Assembly: GCF_003334765.1 (NCBI RefSeq)
Contig: NZ_QOWT01000014.1
Source: Escherichia coli
GTDB lineage: Bacteria > Pseudomonadota > Gammaproteobacteria > Enterobacterales > Enterobacteriaceae
Reading direction: 5' to 3' (one strand)
DNA length: 64,000 nucleotides
In this document: in pieces, positions 55,631 to 56,620 of the stretch
How positions within the stretch are numbered: position 1 is the first letter of the stretch
Layout: each line of letters starts with the position of its first letter
Position numbers and translations under genes: made by a program
The notes under the pieces: model-generated
Told to the model about the DNA's origin: nothing
The model's database searches: none
The model's input: only the letters and a program-made list of their open reading frames with translations

Positions 55631-56620
55631 CTACTCTTCTTCGTTCCCGCCCTCTTCATACGGGCCAAATGGCTTCGCGGGCAGAACGATATACGTGCCT
55701 TCAAACACTGCACCCGGCGTCTCGTCGCCAAAGATTTCGACCTGCATCTGCACCCGTGCTTTTCGTCCGCGCGCCAGACGGTCGAGATCGCCGCTTAAGG
55801 CACCGAGGTCGGCTACCGCATGAGGTTTACCGCTAATCGGCTTGCTGTAGCGGATATGCGCATCCGCAAGAATAATCGTTCCGCCGAGGTGGCGTTCACG
55901 CAGCATCAGCCAGATAAGTCCCCAACCGGTGAGCGTCGCCAGTGAGAATAAACTCCCGGCAAACAGCGTATGGTGCGGATTCTGATTGCCGGTTTCTGGC
56001 ATGGTAGTGATAAATTTTTGCCCGGTATATTGCTGAATGCGCACGCCCATTTTTTCACTAAGCGGGATATGTTCGTACCACGCCTGTTGCAGCTGCGCGC
56101 ACCAGTCGCCGCGATGCAGAATGTCATCCAGAGTGGCGACGGGCTTAATCATCAAAAAATGGCGAATCGGCGTGGTGGTTGGCGTGGTGATTTCTCCCTG
56201 ATTAACAAACCCCAGCTTGGCGAAAAACTCCACCGCGTCTTCACGGGCGCTACAGGTCACGCGCTTAACGCCTTCCTGACGCGCCACCGACTCCAGGGTC
56301 ATCGCCATCAGCGTGCCTAACCCTTTGTCCTGCACGTCGGGATGAACGGCCATAAAGCGAATGGACGCTTCATTGTCGGCATTAATATACAGTCGGCCTA
56401 CCGCCACCAGATTACCCTGCTCGTCGACGACCATCTGGTGATGCGCCATCGCATCCCACGCGTCGCGTTCCGAACCTTTTGGTTGATGCAGGGGCTTACG
56501 CAACATTTCCCAGCGAAACTGATAGTAACGCTCTAATTCTTCTTCTGTTTGTGGAACCCGAAGGTGATACATAGCGATACTCTCTCTTGTTTCCCGTGAC
56601 AACCCTGGAAGCTGGCTCAT
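55631..56620 (-). CDS. yiiD: YiiD, GNAT acetyltransferase fused to C-terminal hotdog/thioesterase-like domain
   Basis: 329-aa [47 protein letters not shown]...; overlaps dtd stop. Confidence 0.9.

Follow-up and report, generated by a model that had tools for sequence, protein, structure and literature searches.

The interval 55631-56620 of the window (the whole 64,000-nucleotide stretch of E. coli DNA that was analysed) consists of one long minus-strand ORF. This locus is almost certainly yiiD (fabY, madA), which closes the co-directional cluster yihX-yihY-dtd-yiiD and whose product has a C-terminal hot-dog domain that acts as a malonyl-ACP decarboxylase. The longest ORF (55631..56620, minus strand) encodes 329 aa from an ATG start (M1) to a TAG stop at 55633-55631 and equals the K-12 MG1655 annotation b3888. 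The gene as annotated by PGAP, fabY (55631..56572, minus strand), encodes 313 aa from M17, a start that is kept in all homologues examined. In genome comparison, the 3.2 kb that span the four genes matched many E. coli chromosomes at 100% identity and were present in all of the 5426 complete E. coli genomes. The RefSeq/PGAP label in the matching genomes is 'fabY: fatty acid biosynthesis protein FabY'. The naming of the gene as yiiD in an earlier note on this DNA is thus borne out by the identical chromosomes, the fabY label and b3888. Sequence identity, domain make-up, the intact catalytic loop and the anatomy of the gene junctions were observed directly; the biochemistry and genetics of YiiD are taken from the cited papers. 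The function of the hot-dog domain is already known, and our analysis adds nothing new to it.

E. coli MadA/FabY/YiiD as described in the literature (b3888; Sanyal 2019; Whaley 2021, PMC8666670) is the product of the same gene. The domains, the catalytic loop and the neighbours are identical and there is no sequence difference; the start differs by annotation, giving 329 aa in K-12 and 313 aa in PGAP. P. aeruginosa FabY (PA5174) has the name and the role in FabH-independent fatty-acid initiation in common with the E. coli protein, but it is an unrelated KAS I/II-type condensing enzyme (PMC8666670). Because of this shared name, Whaley et al. renamed yiiD madA (PMC8666670).

The Pfam scan identified a GNAT domain (PF00583, Acetyltransf_1) at residues 31-138 with an E-value of 8.6e-16, and YiiD_C (PF09500) at residues 174-313 with an E-value of 3.6e-50, the latter over profile positions 1-143 of 144. 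NCBIfam TIGR02447 ('yiiD_Cterm') scored 164.3 bits against a cut-off of 97.1 over residues 181-314 and profile positions 2-138 of 138, so that both profiles of the Mad family are matched over the whole domain. The presence of GNAT and YiiD_C in a single polypeptide defines the MadA subtype, and this architecture is common to the homologues. With the limits given in PMC8666670, the N-terminal GNAT domain covers approximately residues 19-162 in the 329-aa numbering (56135..56566, minus strand), around the Pfam core of 31-138. The C-terminal YiiD_C domain covers residues 171-314 (55679..56110, minus strand) and serves both malonyl-ACP decarboxylation and dimerisation (PMC8666670); dimerisation of MadA was seen by ultracentrifugation in the same study (PMC8666670). 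Sequence matches in the PDB were found for both halves. The C-terminal half matched the Shewanella oneidensis hot-dog protein 1T82 (MadB) over residues 169-314 with an E-value of 2.8e-30, and the N-terminal half matched the small GNATs 5JQ4/5JPH, 2BSW and 1Q2Y with E-values from 7e-7 to 8e-4. We infer the hot-dog fold of YiiD from its homology to 1T82, a solved hot-dog dimer. Since homology to solved structures is joined by published SAXS data on the architecture of MadA, the two-domain architecture is settled. The fusion of a GNAT to a hot-dog domain had been proposed in the earlier note, together with a domain search against Pfam GNAT and thioesterase families as a check, and the search upheld it through PF00583, PF09500, TIGR02447, 1T82 and 5JQ4. 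The Pfam scan returned no 4HBT-type thioesterase profile for YiiD; the only other hot-dog-related match was to DUF4442, with an E-value of 0.03.

According to the accounts of Sanyal 2019 in PMC8666670 and PMC13353551, yiiD keeps fabH deletion strains alive and was there given the name fabY. Purified E. coli YiiD converts malonyl-ACP to acetyl-ACP by decarboxylation (Whaley 2021, PMC8666670), and the acetyl-ACP from MadA is used by FabB/FabF to start fatty-acid synthesis; the protein acts neither as a FabH-like condensing enzyme nor as an acetyl-CoA:ACP transacylase (PMC8666670). This FabH-independent start accounts for the synthetic lethality of fabH and yiiD. The isolated C-terminal domain (MadA-C) or the standalone S. 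oneidensis MadB is each enough in vitro and for rescue of the fabH deletion (PMC8666670). The key catalytic residue is Asn45 of MadB, which lies on a conserved loop (PMC8666670). The corresponding loop of YiiD, N212-Q-N214-P-H216-H-T218-L-F220 (55961..55987, minus strand), is intact, with N212, N214, H216, T218 and F220 all present; these equal N43, N45, H47, T49 and F51 of MadB, for which mutagenesis was reported (PMC8666670). The loop is kept in all of the 85 Enterobacterales loci listed, which comprise the 80 best-matching species of the genome collection and others, the best 80 being all Enterobacteriaceae/Erwiniaceae. An alignment of 33 sequences of distant MadA and MadB proteins showed N214 and F220 to be invariant and N212 and H216 to be at least 90% conserved. 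In the published mechanism the hot-dog domain forms a dimer, binds ACP and converts malonyl-ACP to acetyl-ACP by means of the conserved Asn-containing loop. Condensation of acetyl-ACP with malonyl-ACP by FabB or FabF follows, so that FabH is not needed for the start. The two domains of MadA fold independently, and the GNAT domain is dispensable for decarboxylation.

Standalone YiiD_C proteins (MadB of S. oneidensis, 1T82, and of P. putida and Xanthomonas, the last studied in PMC12093956) align to residues 169-314 of YiiD and keep the N43/N45/H47/T49/F51 loop; unlike E. coli MadA, they have no GNAT domain. The acyl-CoA/acyl-ACP thioesterases of the 4HBT type share the hot-dog fold and a phosphopantetheine thioester substrate with YiiD, but they hydrolyse, whereas YiiD, which has no 4HBT match in Pfam, decarboxylates and retains the thioester as acetyl-ACP (PMC8666670). 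The C-terminal domain had been described as thioesterase-like in the earlier note; this was right for the fold and wrong for the chemistry. The note held the physiological substrate of the fusion to be unclear; for the hot-dog domain the function, malonyl-ACP decarboxylation, was already established in PMC8666670, and RefSeq already uses the name fabY. PF09500 and TIGR02447 are still labelled 'putative thioesterase' in Pfam and NCBIfam. LnmK, the double hot-dog methylmalonyl decarboxylase of the leinamycin polyketide pathway, is likened to this family by its description in PMC8666670, with a malonyl-type thioester and an Asn on a similar loop. MadA is called the sole known source of acetyl-ACP in Ciemniecki 2026 (PMC13353551), with reference to Cronan 2023. 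As published, MadA is the reason that E. coli is not killed outright by FabH inhibitors. Acetyl-ACP also serves GlmU as a high-affinity substrate and acetyl donor (PMC8666670), and through GlmU it leads to UDP-GlcNAc, which is needed for LPS, peptidoglycan and enterobacterial common antigen; this too is published.

In the GNAT domain, motif A (Q97-D-K-G-L-G102) is intact, fits Q/R-x-x-G-x-G/A and is kept in nearly all aligned MadA proteins. The Tyr of the FYxxxGF/Y motif is the usual general acid of GNATs; it is common and not universal. At this position E. coli and all of the approximately 85 listed Enterobacterales sequences have Phe (Phe133), whereas 15 of 19 distant MadA proteins have Tyr, as do 5JPH, 2BSW and 1Q2Y. 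The structure 2FIW also has FF here. The closest solved relatives of the MadA GNAT, namely S. aureus SACOL1063 (5JQ4/5JPH), the glyphosate N-acetyltransferase 2BSW and B. subtilis YjcF (1Q2Y), have motif A in common with it. It differs from them in its low identity, in the Phe for Tyr in FYxxxGF and in its fusion to a decarboxylase. Deletion of yiiD in Salmonella causes a slow-growth lag on succinate (Ciemniecki 2026, PMC13353551), which was ascribed to a failure to accumulate cAMP that is largely independent of the decarboxylase (PMC13353551); the GNAT domain is implicated in this lag-phase cAMP accumulation. In a screen of lysine acetyltransferases YiiD was not scorable, because its overexpression blocked growth. 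The earlier note had named an already-established unrelated function as grounds for dropping its reading. The hot-dog domain has such a function, while the remark that the substrate is unclear still holds for the GNAT domain, for which we found no acceptor reported.

The first gene of the cluster, yihX (57917..58516, minus strand), encodes a HAD glucose-1-phosphatase of 199 aa from an ATG at 58516, with a strong Shine-Dalgarno sequence, AAAGGAGG. It is followed by yihY (57051..57923, minus strand), a BrkB/YihY-family inner-membrane protein of 290 aa, the start of which overlaps the yihX stop by 7 nt (ATGCTAA, 57923-57917, minus strand). An overlap at this junction was found in 61 loci in all, with 7 nt in 51 and 4 nt in 10. 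The D-aminoacyl-tRNA deacylase gene dtd (56617..57054, minus strand) encodes 145 aa and matches TIGR00256 at 9e-77. Its start overlaps the yihY stop by 4 nt (ATGA, 57054-57051) at a junction reading ...GAACCATGATT, and this overlap is present in 73 of the 79 loci that carry yihY. A stop/start overlap is thus conserved at both yihX/yihY and yihY/dtd. The 7-nt overlap of yihX and yihY had gone unmentioned in the earlier note. No Shine-Dalgarno-like sequence precedes dtd, which fits coupling by termination and reinitiation at the yihY/dtd junction. The dtd/yiiD junction, ...CAGGTATGAGCC, likewise forms a 4-nt ATGA overlap (56620-56617), but this requires that yiiD start at M1. Overlaps of the 4-nt ATGA type are the most frequent operon junctions in bacteria and are not unusual in themselves.

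A GC-rich hairpin of 10 bp (55601..55624, minus strand) begins 7 nt past the yiiD stop. Its 66-nt context folds at -24.9 kcal/mol (z -3.0) and has no canonical U tract; the hairpin may mark the end of the transcript. A scan for consensus promoters and terminators gave nothing that defines a transcription unit, with counts below the shuffled expectation. From the spacing of the genes we infer that the four are co-transcribed; they would be read as one unit from upstream of yihX, and the stop/start overlaps would couple yihX to yihY and yihY to dtd. The earlier note had reported overlaps of 4 bp at each junction from yihY to yiiD and, from these, translational coupling. The co-directional, packed cluster and the yihY/dtd overlap stand. 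The dtd/yiiD overlap does not stand as a conserved feature, and the coupling of yiiD to dtd drawn from it depends on the annotation.

The gene dtd lies directly upstream of fabY in 85 of the 85 listed Enterobacterales loci. Beyond Enterobacterales, synteny was inspected in eight representatives, fetched singly and 33-50% identical to the E. coli protein, and six of them showed the neighbourhood yihY (BrkB)-[often an alpha/beta hydrolase]-dtd-mad. The linked cases are Vibrio; Thalassotalea, with 2 nt from dtd to madA; Gallaecimonas, with two genes between dtd and mad; a Shewanella-type standalone, GNAT-less MadB (locus L090) that adjoins dtd; and two metagenomic lineages, one of them a MadB that begins 1 nt past dtd. 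Linkage to dtd was not found in the remaining two of the eight, a Catenovulum/Marinifaba MadA and one metagenomic MadB. The madB gene of Xanthomonas has a different gene neighbourhood (PMC12093956). The dtd-mad linkage is real, is older than Enterobacterales, is not universal, and follows the decarboxylase domain and not the GNAT. It bears out the link between yiiD and dtd that the earlier note had pointed to.

The two annotations of yiiD disagree on the start codon. K-12 MG1655 b3888 starts at M1 (329 aa), and the published residue numbering also follows 329 aa. In other E. coli genomes PGAP places the start at M17 (56572), giving 313 aa and a distance of 44 nt from the dtd stop. Between the M1 ATG, which overlaps the TGA of dtd, and the M17 ATG lies a stretch of 16 codons (56573..56620, minus strand), which appears to be either an unconstrained N-terminal extension or a non-coding spacer. 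A purine-rich, Shine-Dalgarno-like block, AAACAAGAGAGAG (56580..56592, minus strand), lies 7-8 nt upstream of the M17 ATG. Within the spacer between dtd and M17, the purine block (AACAAGAGAGAGTA in E. coli), 7-10 nt ahead of M17 in the comparison, is the only element that is conserved. A core of the GAGAG type is found upstream of M17 in all 85 listed Enterobacterales loci (GGGAG in one Pantoea), even where there is no in-frame upstream start. The predicted anti-Shine-Dalgarno pairing and spacing of the block are better than those of anything ahead of M1, where a Shine-Dalgarno-like AGG stands at zero spacing. In 55 of the 85 loci the dtd stop and the M17 ATG are 44 nt apart. Among the 120 close homologues listed, lengths are mostly 302-315 aa and most commonly 313 aa. 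In a search of 1.8 billion cluster representatives, the distant two-domain homologues all align their residue 1-13 to residue 17-24 of the query. Column entropies at the three codon positions were 0.58/0.72/0.72 in the 16-codon extension; the corresponding values were 0.22/0.13/1.05 for the last part of dtd and 0.17/0.10/0.88 for the core of fabY. The extension therefore carries no coding signature, as there is no third-position excess of variation.

These results indicate that M17 appears to be the universal and probably the principal start of FabY, and that most likely the protein is initiated mainly there, from its own conserved purine-rich ribosome-binding block. The M1 ATG on the dtd stop would be a lineage-restricted alternative, probably a minor or fortuitous one. 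Escherichia and near relatives may initiate at M1, but the comparison does not require it. Because the dtd/yiiD overlap depends on the M1 start, coupling through this overlap is not supported as a conserved feature. Three further ideas on the junction were considered and rejected or set aside. Selection to keep the overlapping ATG was rejected: its A falls on the synonymous third position of dtd codon 145, which is ordinary, ranking 14 of 39 in conservation among four-fold sites. The openness of the M1 frame is uninformative as evidence of coding, with stops in 6 of the 85 loci against 10 of 85 in the second frame of the spacer. The idea that RNA structure is conserved where dtd meets yiiD was also rejected, since the consensus of 24 species folds at only -7 kcal/mol and has no compensatory pairs. 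The junction of E. coli itself folds at -29.8 kcal/mol (z -3.1). Neither yiiD, fabY nor P0ADQ2 occurs in the TRAINSPOTTER N-terminomics supplements. The junction is at least 99% identical in 4965 of 5426 E. coli genomes and is too invariant for a population test.

The competing view of the start is that the true product has 329 aa, made by reinitiation on the overlapping AUG after the dtd UGA, and that the 16 additional residues are a disordered, drifting tail. We consider this rather unlikely, though with a real chance of being correct. K-12 is annotated in this way, and the M1 AUG of E. coli lies in a hairpin loop, although this hairpin is not conserved. Of the 85 listed loci, 62 carry an in-frame ATG on the dtd stop with an open frame behind it. 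Initiation at M1, by itself or together with M17, may therefore take place. In most of the nine Pantoea loci the overlap is GTGA, and in the Salmonella locus L006 the sequence is TAATG. If ATGA, GTGA and TTGA on the dtd stop are all allowed, 69 of the 85 have an open in-frame path to M17. Spacer lengths of 32, 41, 44, 47 and 59 in these lineages are all frame-keeping, but frame-keeping is built into the selection of the loci counted. The rarity of in-frame stops also has to be set against the second frame, which is almost as open. In Yersinia, Dickeya, Cedecea, Buttiauxella, Dryocola and others the M1 ATG is lacking, is cut off by a stop or lies in another frame, and the M1 start is missing from all distant homologues. 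The entropy profile of the extension, the ordinary conservation of the A of the ATG, and an AGG at zero spacing against a conserved block at the proper distance for M17 all count against M1 too. The comparison thus favours initiation at M17 and the shorter product, and the disagreement between K-12 and PGAP affects residue numbering, construct design and claims of coupling.

Two alternative readings concern what the protein does. In one, which builds on the linkage to dtd pointed out in the earlier note, YiiD would combine an acyltransferase with a thioesterase and would serve acyl or aminoacyl-tRNA quality control together with Dtd, at a fixed ratio set by overlap coupling. The evidence in its favour is the constant position of dtd upstream of fabY in the listed Enterobacterales, the presence of dtd beside mad, or no more than two genes away, in Vibrio, Thalassotalea, Gallaecimonas, Shewanella and the two metagenomic lineages, including gaps of 1-2 nt in L093 and L094, and the thioesterase label of the two profiles. 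However, the purified protein decarboxylates malonyl-ACP and its hot-dog domain alone complements the fabH deletion (PMC8666670), no 4HBT-type profile matches in Pfam, and the overlap hinges on the start codon chosen. In addition, the linkage extends to GNAT-less MadB and is lacking in Catenovulum, one metagenomic MadB and Xanthomonas. Our literature search retrieved no paper that links yiiD with dtd function or discusses the dtd-mad adjacency. The quality-control idea thus finds no support beyond the gene neighbourhood; it is largely refuted for the hot-dog domain, and as a whole we give it hardly any credence. The other reading takes the enterobacterial GNAT domain as an acetyl-CoA-binding sensor or regulatory module on the decarboxylase and not as a working acetyltransferase. 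Phe133 in place of Tyr throughout the sampled Enterobacterales, the lack of a reported acceptor, the dispensability of the domain for decarboxylation and the regulatory nature of the Salmonella lag phenotype (PMC13353551) point this way. On the other hand, the acetyl-CoA-binding motif A (QDKGLG) is intact, the N-terminal domain has no effect on decarboxylase activity (Whaley 2021, PMC8666670), the role assigned to Tyr is general GNAT knowledge, some GNATs work without it, and 2FIW also has FF. A sensor module is therefore doubtful in our view. The absence of the usual catalytic Tyr from enterobacterial MadA may nevertheless bear on the role of the GNAT domain, which may catalyse weakly or in a non-canonical way or may act as a sensor; we regard Phe133 as a lead and not as a result.

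The association with dtd leaves the published biochemistry of the hot-dog domain standing. Among gammaproteobacteria the adjacency of dtd and mad is an old arrangement, and it includes the GNAT-less MadB. That the yihY-(alpha/beta-hydrolase)-dtd-mad neighbourhood might reflect a functional link of D-aminoacyl-tRNA deacylation to Mad is very unlikely. If such a link were true, the GNAT domain could N-acetylate the D-amino acids released by Dtd, either from acetyl-CoA or from the acetyl-ACP of its own hot-dog domain. Yeast Hpa3 is an enzyme that N-acetylates D-amino acids. More generally, acetyl-ACP supply and translational quality control could then come under common regulation during nutrient downshift.

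The gene order yihY (BrkB)–[alpha/beta hydrolase, PF00561]–dtd–madA/madB is kept far beyond the Enterobacterales; madA is yiiD/fabY (55631-56620, minus strand), and MadB is the standalone form lacking the GNAT domain. Among our comparison loci, we found the yihY-dtd-mad neighbourhood in L087 (Vibrio), L093 (Thalassotalea), L092 (Gallaecimonas), L090 (with a Shewanella-type MadB) and the metagenomic loci L089 and L094, and the gap between dtd and mad is only 1–2 nt in L093 and L094. The neighbourhood was missing from L088 (Catenovulum/Marinifaba) and L091, and a search of the literature library returned no paper on this gene arrangement. 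No yihY lies between yihX and dtd in L005 (Dickeya) or in L050 and L071 (both Mangrovibacter). Packing as tight as that of E. coli is therefore not a general feature: the spacer between dtd and fabY measures 134 nt in Dickeya (L005) and 73 nt in Yersinia (L004).

In GNAT domains such as that of MadA, the usual general acid is the tyrosine of the FYxxxGF motif. In alignment A1, which comprises 33 distant MadA and MadB sequences, this motif position corresponds to codon F133 in the numbering of the 329-aa ORF (approximately 56222-56224 in the window). Phenylalanine occupies the general-acid position in all of the approximately 85 sampled Enterobacterales MadA proteins. Of 19 distant MadA proteins, 15 carry tyrosine at the equivalent position, and tyrosine is also the residue aligned to F133 in the solved GNAT structures 5JPH, 2BSW and 1Q2Y.

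A hairpin is predicted at the dtd/yiiD junction of E. coli (56560-56640, minus strand), where the first part of the spacer, which runs from the dtd stop to the M17 start codon of the 313-aa form, pairs with the 3′ end of dtd (GUGACAUUCUGG...CCAGGGUUGUCAC) and the AUGA of the upstream start M1 is placed in the loop. The predicted fold of this 81-nt stretch has an energy of -29.8 kcal/mol with a z-score of -3.1. Across 24 related species this hairpin is not conserved.

In the same cluster, the ORF list starts yihX at a GTG at 58537 on the minus strand, yielding 206 aa with an N-terminal extension at 58516-58537. We rejected this longer form as an artefact of the longest-ORF rule, because the ATG at 58516 is preceded by a strong Shine-Dalgarno sequence, AAAGGAGG, and agrees with the 199-aa NCBIfam and RefSeq model.

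The interval between fdhE and yiiD contains an AT-rich islet (54250-55600) with a GC content of 0.31–0.38 versus about 0.55 in the flanking genes, and a short annotated pseudogene fragment lies inside it (approximately 55155-55271). The islet looks like a variable insertion spot, because in L002, a locus from a related enterobacterial species, the equivalent site is occupied by a HigB/HigA toxin-antitoxin pair instead. In the gap between fdhE and yiiF (53866-54106), short ORFs of 72 aa (plus strand) and 62 aa (minus strand) overlap on both strands, and neither is annotated in RefSeq or K-12. Judging by the ORF translations, the sequence of this gap may resemble palindromic repeats of the REP type, with a GCCGGATGCGGCGTGAACGCCTTATCCGGCCTAC-like stretch on the minus strand.

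Both yiiF (54100-54342) and yiiE (54560-54778), on the minus strand, encode ribbon-helix-helix (CopG-type) proteins, and the two are paralogues with 40% identity across 58 aa. Each gene is preceded by a repeat segment of approximately 100 nt (54380-54479 for yiiF and 54818-54917 for yiiE); these segments are 73% identical and have TTTTTGCGAGGCGTTTTCCAGA in common. A unit made up of promoter plus gene thus appears to have been duplicated in tandem, the period being 438 bp.
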